Shown here: positions 8,853 to 26,600 of the stretch, piece after piece
How the letters are laid out: every line of letters begins with the position of its first letter
Numbering within the stretch: the stretch's first letter is position 1
Source of the DNA: a virus
Taxonomy: Duplodnaviria > Heunggongvirae > Uroviricota > Caudoviricetes
DNA length: 26,600 nt
Direction: 5' to 3' (one strand)
Virus record (IMG/VR): IMGVR_UViG_2671180740_000004
Span: 1-26,600 of that record
Notes under the pieces: generated by a model
Seen by the model: the letters and a program-made list of their open reading frames with translations, nothing else
Databases searched by the model: none
Told to the model about the DNA's origin: nothing
Made by a program: the position numbers and the translations under genes

Positions 8853-8885
8853 TTCACGATATTCCATTAATACCATTTCCTGATG

Positions 8886-8910
8886 CCCGGCCATTGTGCC
8901 GGGTTTTTTT
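8886..8910 (+). terminator. rho-independent terminator between the 421-aa gene and the giant gene
   Basis: CCCGGC (8886-8891), loop CATTGT, GCCGGG (8898-8903), then T7 (8904-8910). Confidence 0.75.
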
Positions 8911-8921
8911 ATGGAGTCTGT

Positions 8922-11900
8922 ATGGCCTATTCAGAGGAACAGCGTCCTGAGGCGCAACTCGGTAACCAGAATCGTAACAGCCTGAACATTCAGCAACCCG
9001 GCGAAACTGACAGCTATGAAGCATTTTTCTCTGATCCGAATCGCTGGAAGGATAACAGTACGTCGTTCAGCCTGGGCGATGTATTGCCAACAATGGGTAA
9101 AGGTTTCGCCCAGTCCGTCCGGGGAACAGGGGAAATGGCCCGTGGACTCGGTGATGCGATGATTCAGAGCCCGGTAAAAACAGGGGTGCGTATTTTAAAT
9201 GAGTTCAGCCGTATGGGGCTGCCGGGTGTCGCAACTGTGCAGGATATTTTTGCCGGTGGCAGCAGGGGGGCTGATGAGGTCATCGATACCCTGCCTGATG
9301 GCAAAAACGCGGTTACTGATACTGTCGGTAAAGGTCTGAAGGCAACCGGTAAGGCTGTCAGTGATGGTGCTAAAGCCTCGGATGAATGGCTGACCGATAA
9401 TATGTCGCCGGGTGCTGTGCGTGCGCTGAATACGCCAATGAGTGAAGGCTATGATGATCCCGCAGTCTGGCTGACGAAGGGGATGAATTTTGTCGGTGCC
9501 GTTGCGGCAGATGTGTTTGCTGGCGGTGTGGCTAAAAAGGTGGGTGATGTCACACTGCGAAAAATGCTGACCGCCGGGCTGGAGAAAAAATACATCGCGG
9601 CAGGGATGCAGCCGGAAAGAGCCACGGCACTGGCAGCAGACGCTGTCGATAAAAAAATGCCGGATTTATTCCGGGCGGGCCTGATCACCCATTCCACAGT
9701 AAGTGCACAGGGGCAGAGTGCAATGGCGGCAGCAGATGCTGTTCTTAATGCGGATTACTCTGAGCTGGCGCAGTCACCGAAATTTCAGCAGACGTTTTTG
9801 TCCATTGACGCCGACCCGCAGCACGCACAGCTTACTGATCGCCAGAAAATGGACCTGGCAAAAGAGCGTGTGGCTGATGAGGTGCGTGCGCAACTGGCAA
9901 CCGATCCTCAGTTGCTGGCTGTGAATGCCATGGCGGCAAAACTGGGCGATGCTCAGTTGCTTAATCTGGCGATGCGGGGCACGGCGAATACCGTTAAAAG
10001 CGGCATGATCAGAAACGCCACTGAACAGGGGGCGATTAATGCGGCGCAGGGCGGCTATTCACGCTATCAGGAAAACATGGCACTGCGTGATACCGCCGGA
10101 ATGGATGTGTCGCCGTGGGAGGGCGTGGCTGACGCAACGATCGAAGGTGCAGCCCTTGGTGCTGCGATGGGGGCACCATTCGGTGCGGTTGCCGGATATC
10201 GTGGCAGACGTCAGGCGGCAGATGAAGCCGCCATGCGTGAGGCTGAAGTCGTACAGCAGGACGACGCAGCCCCGCAACCAGAATCTGTTGATCCGGTGGC
10301 GCAGCATCGTGAATCCATGCAGGGGATGAATCGCGAGCAGCTTCTGGAGCAGTATGCTGATGCGGATATGGCGACAGAGGGTGACGCATCCGCAACTCAT
10401 CGCCGGGAAGCCGCCAGCCAGCTGTTGAATGAACTGGACGAACAGGCGAAGCGACAGGCTGTGATGAATGAGCTGAAGGCGAAGCCGCGTTCTGAACTGC
10501 TTGAGGAATACCGCAGACTCAGCCAGAAAGAGGGGCGCACCGAGACTGAAGAACAACAGTTTCAGGCAATACGAGAAGTCATTCGCCCACAACAGGAAGT
10601 GACGCCGGAAGCACAGTCACAGTCTGAAAATGCGGAGGATGGTAACGGGAGCATTTACCCGACGGTGCGGTTCCGGGACCCGAATGAAGTCCGCATTGAA
10701 ATTAACGGGAATGGTGCGTCCAGACCAGCGGAACGCATTGAAAAGGTGCGCCCGGACAACCGTTATTTCACGGATGAGAAAAGCGCCATGGGGAGTGATG
10801 TTTTCCGTAATGCCGCCGCCACCGGCCTGAAACCGTCCGTAGTGAAGAAAGGCGAGAATCAGTATGCCGTTGAAATGGATAATCCTGCGTTCTCTGAAAA
10901 TGTGGCAACGGAAACCATTAACACCCTGGCTGACGGAGAGCGTATTGCTGATGCTGACCCGATGGAGCAGCCCGCGTTCATGCGTGACCCGCGATTCCGT
11001 GGTTTCACGGGGGATGATACGGAGGTACAGGCCCGCCTTGCCCGTGGCAACGCGCCGACGGCGGAGGAGCTTGTACGTTCACAGATGGCTGAAGGTGATG
11101 CCGGTCCGACAGCACAGGAGTTAACTGAGCGTCCGCGTCTGCCCGCCCCCGGCGATATTCATCCCGGACAGGGATATCCGTTACCGGGAGAGGTGGCGCG
11201 TACGCCGGATGAGAATCAGGCCGGACGTGGTGGTCGTTTTACCACAACCGGTGAGGTTAAGGGCCAGAGTTTCCAGAAAGGACGCGGCCCGGCACAGGAA
11301 AACGCCGCTGGTCGCCAGGGGGAAATACTGGAGGGCGAAACTGTTCGTCGTGGTCTGCCGTCACCGGATGAGCAGAGTGTTACCGCCCCGGTACGTGAAG
11401 GTCTACCGGCTCCTGACATTACACACAATGTCCGCATGCCTCAGCCTGAACAGCTTCCCCGAACTGTTCGCAACTCATTACCTGAGCTGGCACAGCAGGC
11501 AGAAGTACGCCGACAGACAGGAGAAGTTCGCGACATCCCGCATGCTGAAACAACAGCACATGAGTCTGAAACAGTTGCTGCTACTGATGGTGAAGGTGCC
11601 GCACGCGGAGGTGTTGCCGGGGGCAAAAAAATTGAAGACTTTGGCGAGGAAATTAAAGGGGCAGCCAAACACCGTTATGCACAGCTTGCTGAAACACTGG
11701 GTAAAACGCTGGAAGACAGGGATTATGCCACGCAGCCGCTGAGCAAACTGTTCCCGAAACCGGACTACGCAAAACTGGCGAACGAAGGTGCCGATGCTGA
11801 CACTCTGGCAATGATAGCTCTGTATCGTAGCGATATTCCGGCGAAGACGAAACACAATACGGCAGGCTGGGGGGAGAGCGTAAAAAAAGTACGACACAGT

Positions 11901-14900
11901 GTATCGGAAATGCTGAACGGAACGGTCAGCGCGAAACGCCTCGCAGAATGGATGGAAGGCAGAATGCCCTCCCGTTACGCGGATACCTGGCAACTGTTAC
12001 GCACTCTGCCACCCTCACAGATGGACAGGGCTTCTGCTTATCGGGTGGTATCGGGTGTGTATCAGGCGGCAGGAGGGAAGCGTTACGATCCGCCACAGAA
12101 ACTTTATTCACTGCGCAATAAGGACAATAAGGGTAGTAACCTCTTTTTCTCGGAAAGCAGGGATGAATTACTGACAAAGGCGAAAGTCTGGTTTGCAGAG
12201 CAGGAGGAAAAATCACAGGCGAAAGGTGATGAAAAAACAGCGCCTTCACCGGATGACAAAATCCGCTTTGACGTTTACCGGAATACCCGCAGTGGCGATA
12301 TTTTTATCGCTTACGGTAAAAACAAAATGCGGGTGAGAGGTGGCTTTAAGTCAGCCAGTGATGCGCGTAAGTACATTGATTCACATCGTGATGAGCTTGT
12401 TCGTCATGTGAAGGATATGCGGGAGATTTCGCGTGAGGAGCAGCGTAACGCCACCAACCGCGACCGTACCGGACCAGAACGCCGTAAAGGGGATGTTTCA
12501 CCGGAGCAGTTCAGTGATGCGTTTGGTTTCCGTGGTGTGCAGTTTGGTAACTACGTGGAAGGTCCGCGTCGTCAGGCTGATTTGAACCGGGCTTATGACT
12601 CGCTGCATGACCTTGCGGAAGTACTGAATGTACCGACAAAAGCGCTTTCCCTGAACGGTCGTCTTGGCCTGGCATTTGGTGCCCGTGGTAAGGGTAAGGC
12701 GGCGGCACACTATGAGTCAGGTGAGGTGGCAATCAACCTGACAAAAGGTAACGGACCGGGGGCGCTGGCGCACGAATGGTTCCATTCACTGGATAATTAT
12801 TTTGGTCGTTATGACGTTTCCACTGACGGGAAGATTACGTCAGGTGGCGACTTTATGACGGAAGCACAGCGTGCCAGGCGCGTATTTAAAGACGGCAGGT
12901 ATGTTGATGCTGAATATCCGGTACGTCAGGAGGTTTACGACGCTTTTAAAGGTGTGATTCAGGCCATTAAAAACAGTGACATGCCGCGTCGTTCAGCGCT
13001 TCTCGATGAGGTGCGCTCAAAACCGTACTGGTCAACGGATGTTGAAATGGCGGCACGTGCCTTTGAGCGTTATGTTCAGGATAAGGCGCGTATGGCTGGC
13101 GTGGAGAATGATTATCTGGTCAATATCCGTAAGGCACCTGAGCACAACACAGATAACACCTGGGCTTATCCGACGAATGCGGAACTGGATGGCGGTATTC
13201 GTGAGGCATTCGATCACCTGTTCCGCACCCTGAAAACCCGTGAGACGGACAAGGGCGTTGCGTTTTATTCCCGTAAGGGCGTTACCCGCACACCTGAAGG
13301 TAATCTCATTTCGGATGTTAACCGTAGTGCGGAAGCCAAAGGCAGCCCGGTCCCGCAGGTTGAAGCGGTTGCCCGTGGCGTGATGAGCGGCATTAAGGAC
13401 AGTGACCTGAAGGTCCGTGTGGTGAAGTCACAGAAAGAGGCTGAAGCGCTGGCGGGTGAATCGTTCGACGGTTACGGCAGGGTGCACGCATTCTATCGTC
13501 CGGATAAACGAGAAATTGTCCTGGTGGCGGATAACATCCCTGACGGGCGGACCGTACGCGAGAAGTTGCGTCACGAGATTATCCACCATGCCATGGAGCA
13601 TGTTGTCACGCCAGCGGAATATCAGACGATTATCAAAACCGTGCTGAAAACCCGCGACAGTGATAACGCCACCATCCGTGAAGCATGGCGTAAGGTTGAT
13701 GCGTCCTATGGTAAGGAATCACCGGAAGTACAGGCGGGTGAATTTCTGGCACATATGGCGGAGAAACAGCCGAATAAATTCGTGGCGGCATGGGAGCGTG
13801 TTGTTGCCCTGGTCAAAGGGGTACTGCGTCGTACGGGGTTACTGAAACCGACGGAACTGAACGATATCAGACTTGTTCGCGAGACCATCCGTACGTTAGG
13901 CCAGCGTGTGCGGGAAGGTTACACGCCGCGTGAGGATGGCGCGGGCGCATCGTCTCAGTACTCCCGTAGTGGTAAACCTGATCCGTTCAAAGTGCCGGAA
14001 GGTGAGGGTGAACGTTATCGCGATGACCTTGCCAGAATGATGAAATCTCTGCGTACCACAGATTTAACGGTAAACATCGGGCGTACGCCGCCGGTATTGC
14101 GTCACCTTGGTGCACCGGATTTGCCGCTGGTTATTTCCCGCGATACTGTGCGGAAGGCCACCAATGGTGTGAAACATGTGGTGCCGATGGATGTTATCGA
14201 GAGACTACCGGAACTGATGCACGATCCGGATGCAATTTACCGTTCCGCGACAGAAAGAAATGCGGTTGTGATGCTGCTTGATGCCGTGGATAAAAATGGT
14301 GATCCGGTAGTGTCTGCGGTGCATATGAAGGCAACCCAAAAACTTCTGGAAGTTAACCGTATTGCTTCTGTTTACGGAACGGAAAACGGGAAAAAACTGA
14401 AGAGTATGGAAATGGCTGGCTTAACATTATACAGGAGAGAAAAACTAAACCCTGATGGTTCTCTGTACAGAGGGCTCCAATTGCCCAAAGATGAGCACTC
14501 CCGTCAGGGTTCTGCGGATAAAATACTCTATCCTGAAGATATTCGCAAGGGGCCGTATTACTCCCGTACCAGCAGTCTGACACCGGAAGAGACAATTGCA
14601 TCGCGTTTTGTGCGCCAGATGCAGGATAAATTCCAGGTGCTGAAAGCTGTTCAGGAGAATATCCGTAAAACTGGTGGAAAAATAGACGACAGTAACAACG
14701 CTTATATGGCGGAAGAACTCTTCCACGGGAAGGCGGAAAACGACCTGAACGTGATGAAGGAGCGCTACGTTCAGCCACTGGCTAAATTACTGGCGGACTA
14801 CAAAATTGCGCAGGCCGATCTGGATGAGTACCTCTACGCCCGTCATGCACCGGAACGTAACGCGCATATCGCGAAAATCAACCCGAAAATGCCGGACGGC

Positions 14901-17303
14901 GGTTCGGGGATGAGCAACGCGGAAGCGGCGGAAATCATGCAGCGTGTGCGTAACAGCGGCAAACAGGCACAGTATGACCGTCTGGCAGGGATTATTGACG
15001 ATATGCTGGCCCGTCGCCGTGAGATTATCCGTGAGGCAGGACTGGAAGAGAGCGGCGTGGTGGATGCCTGGCAGAAAGCCTACCGTTACTACGTCCCCCT
15101 GAAAGGGCAGGATGTTGACGGTGTGGTGTCACTGCCACGTACAGGCAAGGGATTCACCATCGGCGGGCGTGAAAGTAAGCAGGCCATGGGGCGTGCATCC
15201 CGCGCACAGTCTCCTTCCACTCAGGCGATACAGGATTTGAGTGAATCGCTGATCCGCAATCGCAAAAATGAAGTGGGTAACGCCTTCCTGAAACTGGTAC
15301 AGGATAATCCCGACAAGGATTACTGGCAGGTATTCACTGATGACAGACCGGATACCATGCGTGTGATTGCAGAGCGCAAGGACCAGGAAACTGGTGAAAC
15401 CATTCGCGAAGTTGTCGAGCGTCCGGTGGCGATGGCAATGATGGCAGACCGGTACTTCACCACCAAAAAGAACGGCAAAACGTACTACATCAAACTCCAT
15501 GATCCGCGCCTGATGCGTGCGATGAAGAATATGGGACCGGAAACCAGTAACGCAGTAATCCGTACGCTGGGGAAAGTTAACCGCTTCCTGGCAACGGTGA
15601 ACACGTCGTATAACCCGGAATTCCTGGTCAGTAACTTCATCCGTGACGTGCAGACAGCGGTGATGAATCTGAAGGCGGAGCAGGGAAGGAGCGACGGCAA
15701 ACTGAAAGGGCTGGATAACTTATCCGCACTGGCTGTGGTGAAAGACAGCCGTTCTGCTATGTCAGCCGTATACGCCAGTCTGCGTGGCAAAAACCTCACG
15801 GGCAAAGGTGCGCAGTGGCAGAAGGTGTGGAAAGAGTTTGTTGAGGACGGAGGTAAAACCGGCTGGTTTAACATGGGTGACCTTGAAGGCCAGCAGAAGG
15901 AAATGGATCGCCTTGTATCGCTGGCGAAGGGAGGATGGAAAGGCCAGAGTATCGGTGCATGGAATTCGTTCCTGAACCTGGTCGAGGATGCCAACGGTGC
16001 GGTTGAAAACGCACTGCGTCTGTCAGCTTATAAACACGCCCGTGATGCCGGTTTGTCACGCCAGCAGGCGGCGTCTCTTGCCAAAAACATGACGGTGAAC
16101 TTTAACCGTCGTGGTGAGCAGGGGGCGCTGATGAACTCGCTGTACATGTTCGCCAACGCCAGTATTCAGGGAACGGCAAATCTGGTGAGAACGCTCGGAC
16201 ATCTTAATGGTGAGGGACCTTTACTGGAGCGTCTTCGCTGGAAGAATCTGAATGTTCCGCAGAAAATCGCGCTTGCCGCTGTGGGAGCGGGTTATCTGCT
16301 TGGCTCGCTTAACCGCAGCGTGGCGGGTGAGGATGATGACGGGGTTAACTGGTATGACAAAGTACCGTCTCATGTGAAAGAGCGTAACCTCGTCATTATG
16401 AAATCGGTGTTCGGGGGCAAGGCCGGAGAGTACTGGAGTATTCCTCTGCCTTACGGGTACAACGTTTTCTTCCTGCTTGGTCACACAGCCGAAGGGGTGG
16501 CAGCGGGCGACCTGACCGCTTCACGTGCTGCCGGTAATGTTGTTGGTGGTGTGCTTGGGGCATTCAGTCCTGTGGGCAGTGAAACGTCGGAAACACTGTC
16601 CGGGGCATTGCTGAAAAATGCAGCGCCGACCATTCTGCGTCCGTTTGCGAACCTTGCCATGAATGAAAACTTCATGGGGGCGCAGATTTACCAGGAGAAC
16701 ATGCCGTTTGGTACACCAAAACCTGACAGCCAGCTGGGAAGACGTTCAACGCCAGAAGCGTACAAGGCGTTTGCATCCTGGCTGAATGCGTTCTCAGGTG
16801 GCAGCCAGTACCGTCCCGGCGCGGTGGATATCACACCGGAATCGCTGAAATTCTGGATTGACTATATCTCCGGAGGGACAGGGCGCTTCATTTCCAAAAC
16901 CACGGATGCGGCGGTGAAATCGCTGAATGGTATTGATATACCGGAACAGCAGGTGCCCTTCCTGGGGAAAATTTCGGGGGAGGTGATGCCGTATGCAGAC
17001 CAGCAGAAGATGTACGACCGGATGACAGAGATTGCGCAGTATCACGCAGAGCTGAAGAGTCTGACCGGTGCAGAAAGAACGGCGTTCATTGACGAGAACA
17101 ACGGAAAATTGTCGATGAACGGGCTTATGCAGGATACCCGGAAGAGACTGAAGGATTTGCGTAAACAGCGTGATGCCATTTATGCCGACAGTTCTCTCAG
17201 TCTGGCGCAGCAGGCGGCGATAGTGAAATCGGTAGAGCGGGATATGAAGGTTGCCGTGGATCGCTTTAACCGCGAGTACAACAAAAAAGTGGGAGTGGAT
17301 TAA
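8922..17303 (+). CDS. giant polyvalent protein (2,793 aa) with two zincin-type HExxH motifs; probable virion-packaged/injected protein
   Basis: GGAG (8913-8916) lies 5 nt before the in-frame ATG 8922; the track start at 8883 lies inside the terminator hairpin. HEWFH is at 12771-12785, within FGFRGVQFGNY...GALAHEWFHSLDNY...ARAFERYV, which I recognise as the LPD1-type domain of polyvalent proteins. HEIIHH is at 12572+1000 = 13572-13589. The protein also has Gly/Ala hydrophobic segments near 9480-9545 and 10135-10200, a Pro/Glu-rich linker at about 10200-11650, hydrophobic helices at about 16250-16580, and a C-terminal coiled coil. Confidence 0.8.
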   Translation: MAYSEEQRPEAQLGNQNRNSLNIQQPGETDSYEAFFSDPNRWKDNSTSFSLGDVLPTMGKGFAQSVRGTGEMARGLGDAMIQSPVKTGVRILNEFSRMGLPGVATVQDIFAGGSRGADEVIDTLPDGKNAVTDTVGKGLKATGKAVSDGAKASDEWLTDNMSPGAVRALNTPMSEGYDDPAVWLTKGMNFVGAVAADVFAGGVAKKVGDVTLRKMLTAGLEKKYIAAGMQPERATALAADAVDKKMPDLFRAGLITHSTVSAQGQSAMAAADAVLNADYSELAQSPKFQQTFLSIDADPQHAQLTDRQKMDLAKERVADEVRAQLATDPQLLAVNAMAAKLGDAQLLNLAMRGTANTVKSGMIRNATEQGAINAAQGGYSRYQENMALRDTAGMDVSPWEGVADATIEGAALGAAMGAPFGAVAGYRGRRQAADEAAMREAEVVQQDDAAPQPESVDPVAQHRESMQGMNREQLLEQYADADMATEGDASATHRREAASQLLNELDEQAKRQAVMNELKAKPRSELLEEYRRLSQKEGRTETEEQQFQAIREVIRPQQEVTPEAQSQSENAEDGNGSIYPTVRFRDPNEVRIEINGNGASRPAERIEKVRPDNRYFTDEKSAMGSDVFRNAAATGLKPSVVKKGENQYAVEMDNPAFSENVATETINTLADGERIADADPMEQPAFMRDPRFRGFTGDDTEVQARLARGNAPTAEELVRSQMAEGDAGPTAQELTERPRLPAPGDIHPGQGYPLPGEVARTPDENQAGRGGRFTTTGEVKGQSFQKGRGPAQENAAGRQGEILEGETVRRGLPSPDEQSVTAPVREGLPAPDITHNVRMPQPEQLPRTVRNSLPELAQQAEVRRQTGEVRDIPHAETTAHESETVAATDGEGAARGGVAGGKKIEDFGEEIKGAAKHRYAQLAETLGKTLEDRDYATQPLSKLFPKPDYAKLANEGADADTLAMIALYRSDIPAKTKHNTAGWGESVKKVRHSVSEMLNGTVSAKRLAEWMEGRMPSRYADTWQLLRTLPPSQMDRASAYRVVSGVYQAAGGKRYDPPQKLYSLRNKDNKGSNLFFSESRDELLTKAKVWFAEQEEKSQAKGDEKTAPSPDDKIRFDVYRNTRSGDIFIAYGKNKMRVRGGFKSASDARKYIDSHRDELVRHVKDMREISREEQRNATNRDRTGPERRKGDVSPEQFSDAFGFRGVQFGNYVEGPRRQADLNRAYDSLHDLAEVLNVPTKALSLNGRLGLAFGARGKGKAAAHYESGEVAINLTKGNGPGALAHEWFHSLDNYFGRYDVSTDGKITSGGDFMTEAQRARRVFKDGRYVDAEYPVRQEVYDAFKGVIQAIKNSDMPRRSALLDEVRSKPYWSTDVEMAARAFERYVQDKARMAGVENDYLVNIRKAPEHNTDNTWAYPTNAELDGGIREAFDHLFRTLKTRETDKGVAFYSRKGVTRTPEGNLISDVNRSAEAKGSPVPQVEAVARGVMSGIKDSDLKVRVVKSQKEAEALAGESFDGYGRVHAFYRPDKREIVLVADNIPDGRTVREKLRHEIIHHAMEHVVTPAEYQTIIKTVLKTRDSDNATIREAWRKVDASYGKESPEVQAGEFLAHMAEKQPNKFVAAWERVVALVKGVLRRTGLLKPTELNDIRLVRETIRTLGQRVREGYTPREDGAGASSQYSRSGKPDPFKVPEGEGERYRDDLARMMKSLRTTDLTVNIGRTPPVLRHLGAPDLPLVISRDTVRKATNGVKHVVPMDVIERLPELMHDPDAIYRSATERNAVVMLLDAVDKNGDPVVSAVHMKATQKLLEVNRIASVYGTENGKKLKSMEMAGLTLYRREKLNPDGSLYRGLQLPKDEHSRQGSADKILYPEDIRKGPYYSRTSSLTPEETIASRFVRQMQDKFQVLKAVQENIRKTGGKIDDSNNAYMAEELFHGKAENDLNVMKERYVQPLAKLLADYKIAQADLDEYLYARHAPERNAHIAKINPKMPDGGSGMSNAEAAEIMQRVRNSGKQAQYDRLAGIIDDMLARRREIIREAGLEESGVVDAWQKAYRYYVPLKGQDVDGVVSLPRTGKGFTIGGRESKQAMGRASRAQSPSTQAIQDLSESLIRNRKNEVGNAFLKLVQDNPDKDYWQVFTDDRPDTMRVIAERKDQETGETIREVVERPVAMAMMADRYFTTKKNGKTYYIKLHDPRLMRAMKNMGPETSNAVIRTLGKVNRFLATVNTSYNPEFLVSNFIRDVQTAVMNLKAEQGRSDGKLKGLDNLSALAVVKDSRSAMSAVYASLRGKNLTGKGAQWQKVWKEFVEDGGKTGWFNMGDLEGQQKEMDRLVSLAKGGWKGQSIGAWNSFLNLVEDANGAVENALRLSAYKHARDAGLSRQQAASLAKNMTVNFNRRGEQGALMNSLYMFANASIQGTANLVRTLGHLNGEGPLLERLRWKNLNVPQKIALAAVGAGYLLGSLNRSVAGEDDDGVNWYDKVPSHVKERNLVIMKSVFGGKAGEYWSIPLPYGYNVFFLLGHTAEGVAAGDLTASRAAGNVVGGVLGAFSPVGSETSETLSGALLKNAAPTILRPFANLAMNENFMGAQIYQENMPFGTPKPDSQLGRRSTPEAYKAFASWLNAFSGGSQYRPGAVDITPESLKFWIDYISGGTGRFISKTTDAAVKSLNGIDIPEQQVPFLGKISGEVMPYADQQKMYDRMTEIAQYHAELKSLTGAERTAFIDENNGKLSMNGLMQDTRKRLKDLRKQRDAIYADSSLSLAQQAAIVKSVERDMKVAVDRFNREYNKKVGVD

Positions 17304-20622: not shown

Positions 20623-21246
20623 TCAGAATTCAAATTGTCTTGCTCTTAGTTGCGCTAGCATACTTCTGGCCCTATGCACCATATAGTTGGCGGGATCAAG
20701 TTTTGCTGCTTCGCGGAGCAATGTGTCGCGAGTCCGGTTGGTTATATGACGAGTCTCGTAGGCCAGATCAAACAGTTTCCCGTAGTAATCAGAATTCAGT
20801 TCTCTCATGACGGGGTATAGCTGCTTACTGAGTTGTTGTGCTTTTTCCATCCAGAGTTGAACGTAGCAGAGCAGGATGATGTCTTCTGCTGTGAATTGCT
20901 GCTCAGTTTGTACTGGCTGAATGTTGCGAAGTTTCTTTTCGCACTCGATGAAGTATCGGCGTATCTGGCGGCCTTTTTCGTTACGTTCAACCATCGCAAG
21001 CTCTTTGGCTGTGTCGAGGGTGAGGTGGTAATCCTTGCGGCGGCGGCCTGGAGTTTTCGCCAAATTTGGCGAAAATAGAATGTAGTCTAAATTTTCTACG
21101 AATCCATACTCGTTTAGCTTGGCCCGTATCCAGTTAGAAAAATCTTTACCTACCTCTAAAAATCCATGCAAATCACGCGCGTTCACCAGAAGCGTAGGTT
21201 CATTTGAGATTGTACCTTCAAACACAGGGATGAGTTGAGTGGTCAT
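20623..21246 (-). CDS. antA: AntA/AntB-domain phage antirepressor (207 aa)
   Basis: AAGGAGG (21258-21252) precedes ATG 21246. The sequence MTTQLIPVFEGTI...ARDLHGFLEVGKDFSNWI...YGFVENLDY fits the AntA domain. The track's 54-codon extension from GTG 21408 covers a structured leader and is rejected. Confidence 0.8.
   Translation of the reverse strand: MTTQLIPVFEGTISNEPTLLVNARDLHGFLEVGKDFSNWIRAKLNEYGFVENLDYILFSPNLAKTPGRRRKDYHLTLDTAKELAMVERNEKGRQIRRYFIECEKKLRNIQPVQTEQQFTAEDIILLCYVQLWMEKAQQLSKQLYPVMRELNSDYYGKLFDLAYETRHITNRTRDTLLREAAKLDPANYMVHRARSMLAQLRARQFEF
21002..21040. repeat. 39-bp perfect direct repeat, copy 1 (inside antA)
   Basis: TCTTTGGCTGTGTCGAGGGTGAGGTGGTAATCCTTGCGG is identical to 21530-21568. 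Confidence 0.95.
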
Positions 21247-21421
21247 GATGACCTCCTTTGGCTTTTTTCGAGAAATGCCACCACAAAATGTGGTGCCGGG
21301 AGGCTCGAAACGGCCCAAAAGATACCGCGGACTTATTCCCCTTGCGGGTGTTGTATTCGTCGCCCTCCCGACATTGATCGGGGATGTGACCGCACACTGT
21401 GCTATCACTGAATAACAGGCA
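21247..21421 (-). promoter_or_regulatory. structured 5' leader of antA (module 1), candidate riboregulator
   Basis: RNA helices are CCCGA/UCGGG around AUCAAUG; CGGGAGG (from plus 21363-21370) / CCUCCCG (from plus 21296-21303); CCC-GCAA-GGG (21338-21348); and CACCACA/UGUGGUG (21279-21295). CCUCC is complementary to the SD GGAGG (21252-21256). Confidence 0.5.
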
Positions 21422-21482
21422 TAAAAAATCCAACACTGACGGGGTTGGTTTAATCCGCTTTTGGGAGGTTTTCGAGGCCTCG
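21422..21482 (-). ncRNA. candidate short promoter-proximal RNA ending at an intrinsic terminator (module 1)
   Basis: The predicted start is about 7 nt after TATACT. The RNA contains an A-flanked CCUCCC (plus-strand GGGAGG 21463-21468). The terminator is CCAAC/GUUGG (21448-21430) plus U6 (21428-21423). Confidence 0.4.
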
Positions 21483-21488
21483 GCGCGG

Positions 21489-21518
21489 AGTATAGTCAGT
21501 ATTGGACGCAGTCGTCAA
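21489..21518 (-). promoter_or_regulatory. sigma70-like promoter, module 1
   Basis: TTGACG (21518-21513), 18-nt spacer, TATACT (21494-21489). The -35 box is formed at the truncation point of antA'. Confidence 0.45.
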
Positions 21519-21783
21519 CCATCGCCGTTTCTTTGGCTGTGTCGAGGGTGAGGTGGTAATCCTTGCGGTTGTGACCGCCTCTACCAGATGTTTGCTTTCC
21601 CAAATTGGAAAGCAAAATATAGTCTTGATTTTCAATGAATTCGTATTCTGAAATGCGATTTGTAATCCATGCCGCAAACACCTTTTTCACGCCTAAAAAA
21701 GCATGCAGATCGCGGGCATTGCAGAGTAGGGCTGTTTCGTTGTCGATAGTGCCGTTGAATACGGGGATGAGTTGATTAGCCAT
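21496..21783 (-). pseudogene. truncated AntA-domain gene (95 aa; loses homology after ...TAKETAMV)
   Basis: AGGAG (21796-21792) precedes ATG 21783. MANQLIPVFNGTIDNE...ARDLHAFL... parallels antA, then ends DDCVQY* where antA continues ERNEKGRQIRRYF. Confidence 0.7.
21530..21568. repeat. 39-bp perfect direct repeat, copy 2 (inside antA')
   Basis: Identical to 21002-21040, with a 528-bp offset. Confidence 0.95.
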
Positions 21784-21937
21784 AATTATGACTCCTGACG
21801 TTTTAGTATTGACTGCCACCTTAGTGGGGTGGCGGGCTTCAACTACCGCGTCAGACGGCGGAGCGTATTTCCCGAAAGGGTATTGTATTAGGCTCTCTCG
21901 ACCCGCCATTGATATGGCGATACCTGTAAACAGGCAT
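21784..21937 (-). promoter_or_regulatory. structured 5' leader of antA' (module 2), same architecture as module 1
   Basis: RNA helices are CGCCAU/AUGGCG (21919-21904); GGCGGG (21907-21902) / CCCGCC (21836-21831); CCC-UUUC-GGG (21880-21871); and GCCACC/GGUGGC (21833-21815). CUCC..CUGACG (21863-21849) is complementary to the RBS CGUCAGGAG (21800-21792). Confidence 0.5.
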
Positions 21938-21985
21938 AAAAAAGCCGCAAAGCTATCGGGTGCGGTTGACCGCTGACGTTGTAGT
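21938..21985 (-). ncRNA. candidate short promoter-proximal RNA ending at an intrinsic terminator (module 2)
   Basis: The terminator is CCGCA/UGCGG (21965-21945) plus U6 (21943-21938). An alternative hairpin GCGG-UCAA-CCGC (21973-21962) shares the CCGC arm. The RNA contains ACGUCAG (21979-21973). Confidence 0.4.
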
Positions 21986-21991
21986 GCGGTC

Positions 21992-22021
21992 AGTATGCGA
22001 TAGCTCTGGCAGATTTGTCAA
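21992..22021 (-). promoter_or_regulatory. sigma70-like promoter, module 2
   Basis: TTGACA (22021-22016), 18-nt spacer, CATACT (21997-21992). Confidence 0.5.
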
Positions 22022-22110
22022 ATCGTGCAGTAACATCCTTTTCTTCCTTGCCATTTCTCAATGATGACAAAGGGTGGATTCGGATTGGTATTGGGACAAA
22101 AGTGAGACAC

Positions 22111-22144
22111 ACAAAGCTTTGCATCGGCTTACAAAGCTTTGCAT
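22111..22144. promoter_or_regulatory. two operator-like copies of ACAAAGCTTTGCAT spaced 20 bp apart
   Basis: Identical 14-mers at 22111-22124 and 22131-22144, each centred on the perfect 10-bp palindrome CAAAGCTTTG. Confidence 0.45.
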
Positions 22145-22218
22145 GTTTTTCAATGTTGGGACGTGTGAGCGCAGAAATGACGGGCTATCTAATTGATTTT
22201 AAACGATACGTAACCAAC

Positions 22219-22302
22219 TTTAAAATCTTTGCACGCCAGTTCGCAGGTTTTACAGCCAGTACAGCGGCTGGAATCGATAAAAAATCCATATTGTGTGGTC
22301 AT
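22219..22302 (-). pseudogene. ynfG: 5' fragment (28 codons) of the ynfG/dmsB-type 4Fe-4S subunit gene
   Basis: AGGAG precedes ATG 22302, 10 nt after the ynfF stop. The fragment encodes MTTQYGFFIDSSRCTGCKTCELACKDFK and then runs into unrelated DNA (VGYVSFKIN*, stop at 22189-22191). Confidence 0.75.
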
Positions 22303-22312
22303 GGGCTACTCC

Positions 22313-24354
22313 TTAAACCTTTTCGATCTGGACAAGATTGCTGTGCGACGGGTTTCCCTTTGCCAGCGGTGAAGGGCGGTGAGAGGTCAGAATATTGATA
22401 CTGCCGCCGTGATCGACCCGGTCACCAAACATATCCGCTTTAAGCCACGCACCTTGCCCGATGGCGGTAACGCCAGGCAGAATACGCGGAGTCACTTTTG
22501 CGGCAATCAGCATTTCTCCATTATTGTTAAATACCCGCACGGTATCGCCATGACGGATACCGCGTGCCTGAGCATCAATGGGGTTGATCCACACCTCTTG
22601 TGGGCAGGCCTGCTGTAACACATCAATATTGCCGTAGCTGGAGTGGGTACGCGCTTTGGTTTGGCGACTTCACTCAGCATCCAGTAGATGGGTTTGCGTT
22701 CAAATTTTGCTGAGGTTGCGGGTTGGGCGAGGATCACATAGCCCATATTCCCTGCAGATTCATGAGAGATAAGGTCTTCTTGCTCTGTTGGCATCAGGTC
22801 AGGCAACAGGATATCGCAATACTTAGCCGAGGCCGTCATGAAGTGGTCAATGCCAACAATCATCTCGCACTTGCTGTCATCCTGAAGCACCTCATGGGTG
22901 TGATTGATGTCGCCATGTTGATTGATCAATGTGTTACTGGCGTAGCACCATAAAAACTTGATGGGGACATCCAGTTTTTCTTTTCCACGAACACCATCAC
23001 GGGTCGCGGTCATTTTCGTACCATGGTCGATGGCATCTGTCCATGTAAAAACGGAAATCTGCGTTTTAACAGGATTCTCGAGCATCGGGAACCATTCTAC
23101 CCCCAGATCCCAGCTACCTTCGCGTACACCTGAGTTGCCGCCGTTTATGCCGACGTTACCGGTAAGAACGGAAAGCATGGCAATAGCGCGGGACGTTTGT
23201 TCGCCGTTGGAGTGTCGTTGTGGCCCCCAACCCTGACAAATATAAGCAGGTTTTGCTGAACCGATCTCTCGTGCCAACTGGATAATTTTTTCTGCCGGGA
23301 TGCTGGTGATTTTTGCTGCCCATTCCGGCGTTTTAGCTATGCCGTCAGGCCCTTCGCCCAGAATATAGGCTTTATAATGCGCGTTACGTGGTGCGTTGGC
23401 GGGCAGCGTTTTTTCATCGTAACCAACACAATATTTGTCGAGAAATGGCTGATCGACCATGTTTTCAGTAATCAGTACCCAGGCAATCGCACAGGCCAGT
23501 GCGCCATCGGTGCCAGGGCGAATGGGCAGCCATTCATCTTCACGCCCGGCAGCTGTGTCGTTATAGCGTGGATCGATGACGATCATGCGTGCGTTTGAAC
23601 GTTCGCGGGCTTGCTCGACGTAGTAAGTGACACCACCGCCGCTCATCCGCGTTTCTGCCGGGTTATTTCCGAACATAACGACCAGTTTCGTATTGGCGAT
23701 ATCATCCGGGCTGTTGCCATCATTGGCACCGAACATATAACTCATTGCGGCACTGATCTGTGCGGTACTGTAGCTGCCATAGCGACTGAGAAAACCCCCG
23801 CAAGAGTTCATCAGACGGTACGGGACGTTCGAGTTGGTGATATTTCCGCCATCTACGCCTGTTCCGTACAGGACATGTACAGCCTCATTGCCGTAATCTT
23901 TCAGGATCCGCCGAAGATTATCACTGATGGTATCCAGGGCTTCGTCCCAACTTATCCGTTCAAATTTACCTTCACCGCGCTCGCCGACGCGCTTCATGGG
24001 ATATTTCAACCTGTCAGGATGATTCATCCGTCGGCGGATAGAGCGCCCGCGTAAACATGCCCGAACCTGATGATTACCGTAAACGTCGTCACCTGTCGTA
24101 TCAGACTCCACCCAGTACACGGTGTCATCTTTCACATGCAAACGTAGCAGACAGCGGCTCCCGCAGTTAACGGTGCAGGAACTCCAGACCGTTTTCTCTT
24201 CTACCGGAGCCTCTGCCGCCCGGACCATTTGGGAAAATGGCAGAGTGAAAGCACTGCTTGCCAGCGCGAGACTGCCAAGTGCGGAGGTTTTCATCAGACT
24301 TCTATGGCTGATTTCAGCCTTCATGAGCGCCTCTGTGGTATGGATTTTCATCAT
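22313..24354 (-). pseudogene. ynfF: ynfF (Tat-dependent molybdoenzyme of the DmsA family) with an internal frameshifting deletion
   Basis: The N-terminal part (24354 to about 22660) and the C-terminal part (22621-22313) lie in different frames. The junction SEVAK|(P)KRV... is at about 22658-22660. The ynfE paralog in this same window has 130 codons (390 nt, 24754-25143) between the equivalent points. Confidence 0.8.
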
Positions 24355-24411
24355 TACTCACTTATTGCTTTTCAAACAAAATGTCATGCCAGAATTTATG
24401 GTTGTAGTGGG

Positions 24412-25437
24412 TTATATTTTTTCGATCTCGACCAGATTAGTGTGCTGCGGGTTTCCCTTCGCCAGTGGTGAAGGGCGCAGAGTGGTTAGCGTATTCACAC
24501 ATCCGCCATGGTCGATTTTATCGCCAGACATATTGGGCTCGTGCCAGGCTCCCTGGCCCATAGCGCTAACTCCAGGGAGAATGCGTGGTGTTACTTTGGC
24601 TGGTAGCCGAACTTCGCCACGATGGTTAAACACCCGCACCATATCGCCGTTGGCAATCCCACGTTTCTGTGCATCTATAGGGTTGATCCACACCTCCTGA
24701 CGGCAGGCTGCCTTCAGGACATCAATGTTGCCGTAGGTCGAGTGAGTACGGGATTTGTAATGGAAACCAAACAGTTGCAGTGGGAAGGTTCTACGTTCAG
24801 GGGAGTCCCAGCCTTCAAAGGTTGAGGCATAAACTGGCAGTGGGCTTATCACTTCATCTTTTTCCAGTTCCCAGGTACGGGCAATTTCCGCCAGCTTGCT
24901 GGAATAAATTTCAATCTTACCGGAAGGCGTTTTAAGTGGATTTGCCTCGGGGTCGTCACGAAATGCTTTGTAGGCGACAAAATGGCCATTGGGATCTTTA
25001 CGCTTATAGATACCCATTTTTTTCAGTTCGTCGTAAGACGGTAACGCCGGATCTTTGGCAAGCATTTTGGCGTACAGATGTTGTAACCATTGTTCCTGCG
25101 TGCGACCTTCTGTGAACTTTTGATAGACGTCAGGTCCAAGACGTTTCGCGACTTCACTCAGGATCCAGTAAATCGGTTTACGTTCGAATTTTTCGCTGGT
25201 GACTGGCTGGAGGAAAATGAGATATCCCATGTTACCGGCGTAGTCGTTAGGAATAATATCTTCCTGCTCAACGGTCATCAGGTCTTCCAGCAGAATGTCG
25301 GCATATTTTGCCGATGAGGTCATAAAGTTTTCGATGACCACAATCATTTCGCATTTCGATTCGTCCTGCAGAATTTCATGCGTTTTGTTGATGTCAGAAT
25401 GCTGATTAACGAGGGTATTTCCCGCGTAGTTCCAGAT
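24412..25437 (-). pseudogene. ynfE: 3' portion (about 342 codons) of ynfE; the 5' half is replaced by foreign DNA
   Basis: DmsA-family similarity starts at ...IWNYAGNTLVNQHSD (codon at 25437) and runs to the stop at 24412. The 47 upstream codons of the track ORF are unrelated. Confidence 0.75.
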
Positions 25438-25503
25438 GGACTCCATTGCCAGACGGATGGATGGACTTGAAGTAGTTGACTCAATGCTACTTAAGGTCCT
25501 GAT

Positions 25504-26541
25504 ATGACTGACATTAATCATGATAACACTGTATATCCATCCAGTTCTTTCTCTGGGTCTCCCTATCGGTATCAGCAAGTCTACACCTCAAGCCCTGACA
25601 CAAGGCTGACACAAATCAATCTACTCAGCGTAGCTAAGCCTCAGTTAGTCCGCAGAGCCAATGGTCGATATACTATCCGCTTCAGACTCAAGGGACAGAC
25701 CACACCGTTTCTTTCAGTATCGACCCGCAGCACAGACAGGAGAGTAGCCACAATGCGTCAGAGAGAGCTTGCAGCCACCGCTAAGGCCTTCATGTTGGAT
25801 AGGCCTGAAGTCTCACTACAGGAGCTTACAGAGCATCTCCGGTCTATGGCTGAGCAGTTCCTGACAGACGCTAGTGACGATTACTGGAATGGACTTGAGG
25901 TCGCTACTCTGGTCGACGAGAAGTCCAACCTGAAGGAGCTAGCCGCTACGCAAGCCTTGAGTCTGGACCAGCAGAAGGGCATAAGGTTAGCGCTGGAAGT
26001 CCTGACCGCAGCACAGCAGAGAGTCGACACTGGTGATACCTCTGGTCTGATTAAGCTGATTGATGATAATAACCTTACTGATGACTCAACTATAGGCGAC
26101 TCTACGTCAATTCTGAATAATGAGCAGGGGGATAGACCGGCAGTTTTCACACAGGAGCGCCAGTCATCTGTAGTTTTTTCAAGCCTAGTGTCCTCGCTGC
26201 TGGCTGAGAAGGTCCAGACCCTGAAGACATCCAGCTACAAGGACCTCTCGTCCTCACTCAATACTGTCTCCCGGTTCCTGCCTGAAGACATGGACCTGAT
26301 GTCCCGCTCTGGGTGGCTGGCTGTCAGGGACTCTATGCTGGCTTCTGAGGTGAGACCATCGACAATCAACAAGCTGCTGACCAAAGCGAAGATGTGTCTC
26401 GATTATGGCCTGATGAATGGGCAACTTGAGGGCCGCAACCCTATTGAACGGATGAAGCTGACCAAGGATATCGACTCCAAGCGCAGAGCGTTCACAGACG
26501 AGGAGCTGGAGAGACTTCTGGTCCGTGTTGAGTCTGAGTGA
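25504..26541 (+). pseudogene. tyrosine recombinase/integrase, N-terminal and core-binding parts only, truncated by an IS
   Basis: LVRRANGRYTIRFRLKG...SVSTRSTDRRVA resembles the N-terminal motif of one integrase class. ...TINKLLTKAKMCLDYGLMNGQLEGRNPIERMKL...KRRAFTDEELERLL marks the core-binding to catalytic transition. No R-H-R-Y catalytic region is present, because the stop TGA (26539-26541) is the first three bases of the IS end. Confidence 0.55.
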
Positions 26542-26600
26542 AGTGGCACACTGAATTTGGCCACCTGAACAGAGGTGATATGCTCACCTCAGAACAACAC
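26539..26600 (+). mobile_element. IS3-family (IS911-like) left end; the body lies off-window to the right
   Basis: TGAAGTGGCACACTGAATTTGGCCACC resembles the IS911 IRL pattern TGAAGTGG...TGGCCACC. GAGGTG followed by ATG 26579 looks like an orfA start. Only 62 bp are visible. Confidence 0.6.

Follow-up and report, generated by a model that had tools for sequence, protein, structure and literature searches.

A small integrative element in ynfE, split by IS911 in Shigella flexneri, as a putative satellite of T7-like phages

We analyzed a stretch of 26,600 nucleotides of the virus record IMGVR_UViG_2671180740_000004 (positions 1 to 26,600 of that record; here, we refer to the whole stretch as the window), near the right end of which the molybdoenzyme gene ynfE is interrupted by a small integrative element whose integrase gene is in turn interrupted by an insertion sequence (IS), IS911. 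This nested arrangement, the element in ynfE and IS911 in the integrase, is near certain and, taken alone, would be routine Shigella genome decay. The element itself, to judge from the promoter-like and junction-like sequences that it carries, is probably a satellite whose helpers are virulent T7-like phages of the K1F/Kayfunavirus type. Somewhat less firmly, we propose that it belongs to an undescribed enterobacterial family of satellites of 6.2 to 6.9 kb, which would be driven by the RNA polymerase of the helper, would form or alter capsids with an HK97-fold protein of their own and a copy of gp7.3, and would use a copied junction pause signal for packaging; the family would be present in roughly 3 to 5% of complete Escherichia coli genomes and in much of S. 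flexneri.

An element integrated at a 13-bp core in ynfE

The region of the window from 22218 to 26600 is 100% identical to four Shigella flexneri chromosomes, and the distribution of the element was surveyed in 5,426 complete E. coli genomes. In this region, the DNA is thus that of S. flexneri or of a bacterium that cannot be told apart from it. The 3' fragment of ynfE, for which the E. coli EC2 annotation gives [quoted passage not shown] remains colinear with the K-12 gene up to a 13-bp core, GTAGTTCCAGATG. This core occurs a single time in K-12 ynfE (gene nucleotides 1401 to 1413) and twice in EC2, 6,612 bp apart, where the two halves of ynfE adjoin it with zero bases lost. Since the core is found once in K-12 and twice in EC2 and ynfE is otherwise colinear, the junction is not a chance pattern. 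In the S. flexneri genomes L008 to L010, the two cores are spaced 7,743 bp apart, a distance that comprises the element plus the IS. The direct repeat flanking the element is the single copy of the empty site, as in site-specific integrative elements, and an element of ca. 6.5 to 6.6 kb is thus integrated in ynfE by tyrosine-recombinase recombination at the 13-bp core without any loss of sequence. In some metagenomic copies, the core at the right end reads GAAGTTCCAGATG, and strict identity then narrows to AGTTCCAGATG. YnfE is interrupted at about residue 471 (codon 467 to 471), and its 5' half acquires a tail of 14 amino acids and a stop, so that the gene is inactivated.

EC2 and the window (24300 to 26539) are 99.1% identical, and the same junction between ynfE and the element is carried by 144 of the 5,426 E. 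coli genomes. A previous examination of the window (the sequence-only reading) had described an abrupt end of ynfE similarity, which stands, at 25437, which has to be moved to 25438. It had also placed the start of the integrase open reading frame (ORF) 66 bp past the end of ynfE, next to an element end, and both hold with the last ynfE base so corrected (start at 25504). Its view that the target lies inside a molybdoenzyme gene is borne out as well, but the case that it took for unusual is not a one-off, given the 144 genomes and the fact that the target has been published. The TIGER study, in the accessible parts of the paper, gives ynfE as one of 19 new candidate cases of "regulated gene integrity," with the islands Eco892.7.ynfE and Sfl13.8.ynfE, on the basis of domain disruption and a tight integrase clade (Mageeney 2020, PMC7192596); neither the insertion event nor its target is new after that work (PMC7192596).

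On its own, the 345-aa product of the truncated integrase gene (int) gave no recombinase match in Pfam, NCBIfam, or PHROG. Over its full length, it is 99 to 100% identical to the N terminus of proteins of 526 aa that occur in Escherichia, Citrobacter, and Enterobacter and that carry the Phage_integrase domain (PF00589) at residues 334 to 508 (E value, 7e-14) and match phrog_1, "integrase" (E value, 7.6e-40). The catalytic motifs GARSAE, HSLRH, GH, and ITYDLY can be read in the 526-aa homologue, all of them beyond residue 344. The PF00589 catalytic domain with the R...HxxR...H/W...Y signature of tyrosine recombinases is therefore present in the homologue and absent from the ORF in the window, which, by its N-terminal identity to these integrases, is a recombinase gene minus the catalytic domain, just as had been surmised from its sequence. 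The exact 345-aa product is annotated as "integrase [Shigella flexneri]" in complete chromosomes (P0033) and in well over a thousand draft contigs. Integrases 97 to 100% identical to the fragment were also found in Citrobacter freundii, C. portucalensis, Enterobacter hormaechei, and Enterobacter cloacae (P0055, P0072, P0091, P0093, P0117, and P0141). Near-identical integrases across genera indicate that the element has probably been transferred between genera in recent times.

Several short repeats accompany the element ends. Judging from their sequence and placement, the pair GGACTTGAAG/CTTCAAGTCC and the motif TTGACTCAATGC are probably core-type or accessory recombinase sites. The TGACACAA repeats, two at each element end (five copies within 42 kb of EC2, four of them at the element ends), are probably arm-type binding sites of the integrase.

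Gene content of the element family

Intact copies are found, for instance, in E. coli EC2 (NZ_CP058571) and RM10410 (NZ_CP042350). The one in EC2 has about nine ORFs in 6.6 kb, all in one direction: int, followed by ORFs of 166, 171, 166, 67, 163, 329, 75, and 51 aa, with two long non-coding stretches, one after int and the other after the first ORF. No cargo protein had a Pfam or NCBIfam match, and no polymerase, primase, portal, terminase, or tail genes were found in the element with Pfam, NCBIfam, and PHROGs. As in satellites, we are dealing with an integrated element devoid of a full set of virion and replication genes.

The cargo protein of 329 aa is a member of a small family, with 62 representatives among 1.8 billion proteins. 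Its AlphaFold model, built on an alignment of 37 sequences, reached a predicted local distance difference test (pLDDT) score of 84.4 and a predicted template modeling (pTM) score of 0.79. The distant homologues retrieved by an exhaustive HMMER search were needed for this result, as the model with only 12 close homologues had a pLDDT score of 36. The model has the HK97 fold, which is characterized by an N-arm, an E-loop hairpin, a spine helix, and P and A domains, and according to it, the 329-aa protein is an HK97-fold capsid protein. The family profile had no match among PDB sequences, and the protein has neither a PHROG match nor sequence similarity to gp10 of the T7 group. One family member is fused to a Big_2 Ig-like domain, which is the sole source of the Pfam and PHROG matches of the family; in phages, Ig-like domains are typical of virion proteins.

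The 75-aa ORF encodes a homologue of gp7.3 (phrog_1320; E value, 4.4e-9) that is 39% identical end to end to gp7.3 of phage K1F and was also matched in phage Bas105 by tblastn (E value, 1e-5). When all proteins of the element were compared with Bas105 by tblastn, gp7.3 was the only match. The gene immediately upstream of that for the capsid protein encodes a charged 163-aa protein, whose position and composition make it a candidate scaffold.

Across the family, size (6.2 to 6.9 kb) and gene order are constant, while capsid proteins are 67 to 97% identical and three different att sites are used. Relatives are found at the 3' end of tRNA-Gly(CCC) (L006, L038, L071, and L074), and a divergent member (L005) has the attachment core TAGTTCAGATTGAAC. 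The region after the promoters described below is variable and contains DUF4145, KilA-N/Rha-type, and other small genes. IS damage is common in the family: the NCTC9966 copy (L004) holds two IS3 copies, and the copy in an enterohemorrhagic E. coli (EHEC)-type chromosome (L097), which is likewise integrated at another attachment site, has an IS66-family element inside and adjoins a second integrase broken by IS600. One-third of the element, covering the ORFs around the 163-aa and 329-aa genes, was also found at 75.7% identity in the 58.7-kb, non-mobilizable Enterobacter hormaechei plasmid NZ_CP126871 (H58), at positions 20676 to 23391.

Phage-type promoters and junction signals

In the non-coding DNA of the element, sequences resembling T7-group promoters are arranged in tandem. 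Their motif, CTAAACTATCACTATAGGG(A/G), lies on the gene strand and was conserved in every family member examined, those at other att sites included. Among metagenome copies of at least 6 kb, 36 of 41 carried it, and it was never on the opposite strand. A 31-mer around CTAAACTATCACTATAGGG matched 808 phage records, mostly T7-like phages of ca. 39 kb whose hosts are Escherichia, Klebsiella, Salmonella, Enterobacter, and Shigella; many of these matches were identical at 25 of 25 positions, with 8 to 10 sites per genome. Bas105 has nine such sites and K1F has ten, all located on the coding strand and upstream of blocks of genes; the phi10 position, in front of the capsid gene, is among them. The element motif agrees with the consensus of these Bas105 and K1F sites and has the sequence of a late-type promoter of the T7 group (Kayfunavirus; consensus of ca. 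23 nt, from -17 to +6). We infer that the element promoters would be active with the phage polymerase, with transcription predicted to start at the boundary between CTAAACTATCACTATA and GGG. Within E. coli chromosomes, the motif was present in 270 of the 5,426 genomes, always in unannotated DNA, and the one chromosomal site that was inspected lay within another copy of the element family.

Two flavors of promoter, often in tandem, could be distinguished (for instance, at positions 23681 to 23737 of L001 and in metagenome copies), namely, the Kayfunavirus type, CTAAACTATCACTATAGGG, and a C-rich type, AATACCCCCTCACTATAGGGACA or AAACCCTCACTATAGGG. For the C-rich AATACCCCCTCACTATAGGGACA, the best match among known phages was 85 to 88%. 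Two flavors could point to a response of the element to helpers of more than one lineage.

A second type of signal is found ca. 135 bp inside the left end, within int, where family members carry the 16-nt sequence TCCCTATCTGTATCAG, conserved in divergent members (GTCTCCCTATCTGTAT) and identical over its 16 nt to a sequence of Bas105. Its homologue in K1F begins 2 nt after the 178-bp terminal repeat, and in T7, a class II pause/termination signal occupies the same position at the concatemer junction (10.1101/2021.01.11.426313). By this similarity, TCCCTATCTGTATCAG may function as a class II pause/termination signal in the element. Further inside int, ATCTGTAGTTTTTT, another candidate signal for a phage RNA polymerase, is conserved in L001, L004, L005, L008, and L011, and 20 of 41 metagenome copies have it as well. 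Lastly, the 28-nt hairpin GGAGGGTGATAATAATCATAATCCCTCC is common to the element, the divergent member L005 included, and to Bas105, where it follows the large terminase gene, at ca. 120 bp downstream of the final promoter. A motif near the right end that resembled T7-like genome ends, CTCACAGTG, was dropped, as it was found in close relatives only and was absent from L005 and L006.

Other repeats were noticed in the non-coding DNA of L001. Two 33-bp direct repeats, GTCTTATTTAAACTGGTTCCCTAACTCAGG[T/C]CC, are located 44 bp apart after int (22944 to 22976 and 22988 to 23020) and could be an iteron-like or regulator-binding site. A 20-nt inverted repeat (24029 to 24116; 90% complementary, with a 48-nt loop), in the long leader past the promoters and just upstream of the 171-aa ORF, resembles in its layout the RNase III-type processing hairpins of T7 transcripts.

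A proposed life cycle and its alternatives

Putting these features together, the element would remain silent in a lysogen-like state until the cell is infected by a K1F-type phage, whose single-subunit RNA polymerase would fire the element promoters. Transcription of the one-directional operon would then provide the variable DNA-binding and accessory genes, the charged 163-aa protein, the HK97-fold capsid, the gp7.3-like virion protein, and a small membrane protein, while the helper would supply the replication, portal, terminase, core, and tail functions. Upon excision and circularization, transcription across attP (the re-joined ends) would reach the copy of the class II pause site, as happens at the concatemer junction of T7, and this copy may mark the element DNA for maturation and packaging. 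The resulting particles would be built partly from the capsid and gp7.3 proteins of the element, with the portal, core, terminase, and tail of the helper. By analogy with known satellites, interference with the helper is likely.

A number of observations weigh against this proposal. Contigs of ca. 6.6 kb were considered as excised circles, and this was rejected because they turned out to be integrated copies with 40 to 70 bp of host flank or ending just inside the att sites; they have no terminal overlaps and are assembly "bubbles" that give no support for excision. The element had no match in a collection of 50,697 phage records, and its sole matches in IMG/VR were predicted prophage regions of isolate genomes. 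A scaffold, an excisionase, and a replication initiator could not be identified by homology, and we know of no case in which a capsid protein alone suffices to redirect T7-type assembly. The pause-site variant of the element reads ATCTGTA rather than ATCTGTT, and T7 polymerase is reported to lose termination with any change to ATCTGTT (10.1101/2021.01.11.426313), so that the argument from the pause site rests on a helper lineage with the same variant. Finally, the window covers only 1.1 kb of the element, and the right part in S. flexneri comes in two versions, one of them with a 3.6-kb deletion.

The main rival explanation is that of a phage-sensing defense island, in which infection would be sensed through the promoters, assembly of the invading T7-like phage would be poisoned by the capsid-like and gp7.3-like proteins, and spread would take place by other routes only. 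The promoter, capsid-fold, and gp7.3 data fit this explanation equally, the variable genes behind the promoters (DUF4145 and KilA-N/Rha-type) are as in defense hotspots, and no circular or encapsidated form of the element turned up in the sequence collections. However, it is not obvious what the conserved pause-site copy and the shared hairpin, both cis acting, would do in defense, and the 99% identical integrases of Escherichia, Citrobacter, and Enterobacter argue for efficient horizontal transfer. Besides, known satellites also interfere with their helpers, which makes interference and transfer compatible. We consider a defense island unlikely. Clearly less probable is a decayed remnant of a temperate T7-like phage, i.e., a cryptic prophage stump. 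Such an origin would account for the T7-type promoters, the gp7.3 homologue, and an HK97-fold capsid gene in a T7-like order, and temperate T7 relatives with integrases do exist, according to the accessible part of PMC10134795. Yet, the size of 6.2 to 6.9 kb and the gene order are constant despite a capsid divergence of up to a third and three att sites, and independent decay would not converge in such a way; moreover, the ORFs are intact, and the capsid protein is dissimilar in sequence to gp10 of the T7 group and unmatched in PHROGs.

The listing of ynfE as a candidate in the accessible parts of the TIGER paper (PMC7192596) and the exact integration, owing to which excision would restore ynfE, would suit a reversible switch ("regulated gene integrity") that gives back selenate reductase, the cargo being incidental. 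Several points speak against it. A regulatory connection to anaerobic or selenate physiology was not found, close relatives of the element are integrated elsewhere, in a tRNA-Gly gene or at other sites, and E. coli has a functional paralogue in ynfF. In the window, with int dead and each of ynfE, ynfF, and ynfG broken, no switch could operate. As an explanation of the element, we rate the switch marginally below the prophage remnant. An endpoint of an IS-mediated deletion or rearrangement, which the sequence-only reading had named as the case that would overturn its own interpretation, can practically be dismissed. IS copies are indeed abundant in Shigella, and one S. flexneri genome has an IS911-adjacent deletion inside the element, but the ynfE junction is 1.1 kb away from the IS and is the same in 144 E. 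coli genomes without an IS there, and both halves of ynfE are present and adjoin the same 13-bp core. Comparison with an intact ynfE, where the core is single, revealed no deletion, and nothing of ynfE has been lost next to the flanking cores. Overall, a satellite of T7-like phages remains the interpretation that we favor.

IS911 and the state of the locus in this strain

Table 1 lists the features of this part of the window. The stop codon of int, a TGA at 26539 to 26541, is formed by the opening three bases of the IS, in agreement with the earlier suggestion that an IS911-like terminus at 26539 supplied it. As the window holds only 62 bp of the IS, the remainder was taken from 100%-identical S. 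flexneri genomes, in which the IS measures 1,249 bp with TG...CA ends (TGAAGTGG...CCACTTCA). It is 99% identical to copies annotated as "IS3-like element IS911 family," and its called product has HTH_Tnp_1 and rve domains. The TG...CA ends, the 3-bp duplication, the length of ca. 1.25 kb, and the orfA-orfB transposase with rve are those of IS911 in the IS3 family. IS600, the name found in the annotation of a composite locus, was rejected, since full-length comparison identified IS911. IS911 is abundant in Shigella, and the copy in the window is an ordinary one with nothing distinctive.

Directly after the IS, the S. flexneri genomes have the C-terminal piece of the integrase (186 aa, with Phage_integrase), where the element resumes and continues to the second core. 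The search to the right that had been suggested for the window therefore recovered the integrase remainder, the rest of the element, and its other end, just as the comparison of the 345-aa protein had recovered the full-length integrases (99 to 100% identity). IS911 transposed later than the element, into codon 344/345 of int, and parted the N-terminal DNA-binding part from the catalytic domain. With int split, the element is unable to supply its own recombinase, and within this lineage of S. flexneri it is fixed in place. An S. flexneri genome (L007; CP058589) has an extra deletion of 3.58 kb that starts at the exact right end of IS911 (L007 12282 versus L008 12288 to 15866) and spans the C terminus of int through the 163-aa gene; it looks like an IS-mediated adjacent deletion.

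The copy of the pause site in the window has a T-to-G change with respect to the family version and, given the T7 rule that any change abolishes the signal, should be inactive. The proposed life cycle of the element is dead in the strain of the window, with int split and the pause-site copy point mutated, and the element is decaying in Shigella.

TABLE 1 Features at the right end of the window (element functions are putative)
Feature	Position	Strand	Remarks
ynfE 3' fragment	24412-25438	-	K-12 ynfE gene nucleotides 1401-2427; 5' half separated by the element
attL core GTAGTTCCAGATG, 13 bp	25426-25438	+	Crossover region; occurs in both ynfE and the element
Integrative element (putative T7-like-phage satellite), left 1.1 kb	25439-26538	+	Remainder past the IS, outside the window
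Spacer, 65 bp			From the end of ynfE to the int ORF
GGACTTGAAG	25463-25472	+	Inverted partner of CTTCAAGTCC, which adjoins the right-hand core; read from sequence
TTGACTCAATGC	25476-25487	+	Second copy near the right element end
Truncated tyrosine-recombinase gene (int)	25504-26541	+	344 native residues plus a one-codon overlap; catalytic domain gone
Mutated pause-site copy TCCCTATCgGTATCAG	25560-25575	+	Family version TCCCTATCTGTATCAG matches the Kayfunavirus class II signal
Two TGACACAA repeats	25596-25614	+	11 bp from start to start
ATCTGTAGTTTTTT, second class II terminator-like signal	26166-26179	+	Inside int
GAG, 3-bp target duplicated by IS911	26536-26538	+	Flanks the IS on either side in L008; single in EC2, where the gene is uninterrupted
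IS911 (IS3 family), left end	26539-26600	+	First 62 of 1,249 bp; begins TGAAGTGGCACACTGAATTTGGCCACC

The neighboring genes are also damaged. In comparison with E. coli, ynfF (22313 to 24354) has an internal deletion of 385 bp (break at 22658/22659) that leaves ORFs of 615 and 102 aa. Of ynfG, only the first 85 nt are left (22218 to 22302); the gene is cut there by the end of a lambdoid prophage, which occupies positions 1 to 22217. With ynfE, ynfF, and ynfG all broken, the ynfEFG selenate-reductase operon is dead in this strain. The genes of the prophage include a tail-tip fiber, Lom, Ead/Ea22, DUF551, and two AntA/AntB antirepressors, as well as a single ORF of 2,806 aa (8883 to 17303) with an E. 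coli homologue annotated as "LPD38 domain-containing protein," which we regard as a giant cargo protein. Since the S. flexneri genomes matched by the remainder of the window have an intact ynfG, the prophage is strain specific; a related prophage is found at the same ynfG site in EC2 and other E. coli genomes.

Comparison with known systems

T7-like phages, the textbook examples of "simple" virulent phages, are favored for phage therapy. We found no description of satellites of T7-like phages in the searchable literature, which leaves subscription journals mostly uncovered, so that a prior description is possible. The nature of the element, that is, an HK97 capsid gene, T7-type promoters, and junction signals within a 6.6-kb integrase element, appears to be new. 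If our interpretation is true, this would be the first satellite wired directly to the single-subunit RNA polymerase of its helper. It would also mean that genes can be transferred, and phages interfered with, by a new route in E. coli, Shigella, Citrobacter, and Enterobacter. In addition, it would offer a natural system of very small size in which to study T7-type signals for replication and packaging as well as the control of capsid size.

The TIGER islands Eco892.7.ynfE and Sfl13.8.ynfE share the target gene and the organisms with the element of the window, and their sizes agree with it: the E. coli island of 7 kb fits the element alone, and the S. flexneri island of 8 kb fits the element plus the 1.25-kb IS (PMC7192596, accessible parts). 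They are almost certainly the same element. The accessible parts of that paper treat the ynfE island as gene inactivating only and have nothing on its cargo, promoters, capsid gene, or phage dependence (PMC7192596).

Comparison with the capsid-forming PICIs (cf-PICIs) shows several differences. The cf-PICIs of Enterobacteria are about twice as large, encode a portal, a protease, head-tail connectors, and a small terminase, and use the tails of temperate siphophages. In contrast, only the capsid and the gp7.3-like protein are recognizable in the element, which lacks that capsid module, so that it does not qualify as a cf-PICI, and carries regulatory signals like those of a virulent T7-like phage. 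The PICMIs and the marine VEIMEs are closer in design, being likewise integrase-bearing elements of ca. 5 to 7 kb that depend on virulent helpers, a dependence that is only inferred for the element (PMC10803314 and PMC9618062). PICMIs have no capsid-remodeling genes and, in the accessible part of their description, are not reported to use promoters of a phage RNA polymerase (PMC10803314). The hosts of these minimal satellites are Vibrionaceae or marine. The family to which our element belongs, in contrast, is enterobacterial, encodes a capsid protein, and has T7-type promoters.

A further parallel comes from the laboratory. In 1990, Chung and Hinkle reportedly obtained transducing particles when plasmids with a T7 origin and the concatemer junction were packaged by T7. 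These plasmids are also small DNA molecules with T7-type promoters and junction signals for which the phage provides the functions in trans, but they are laboratory constructs, while the element would be a natural counterpart with an integrase and a capsid gene of its own.

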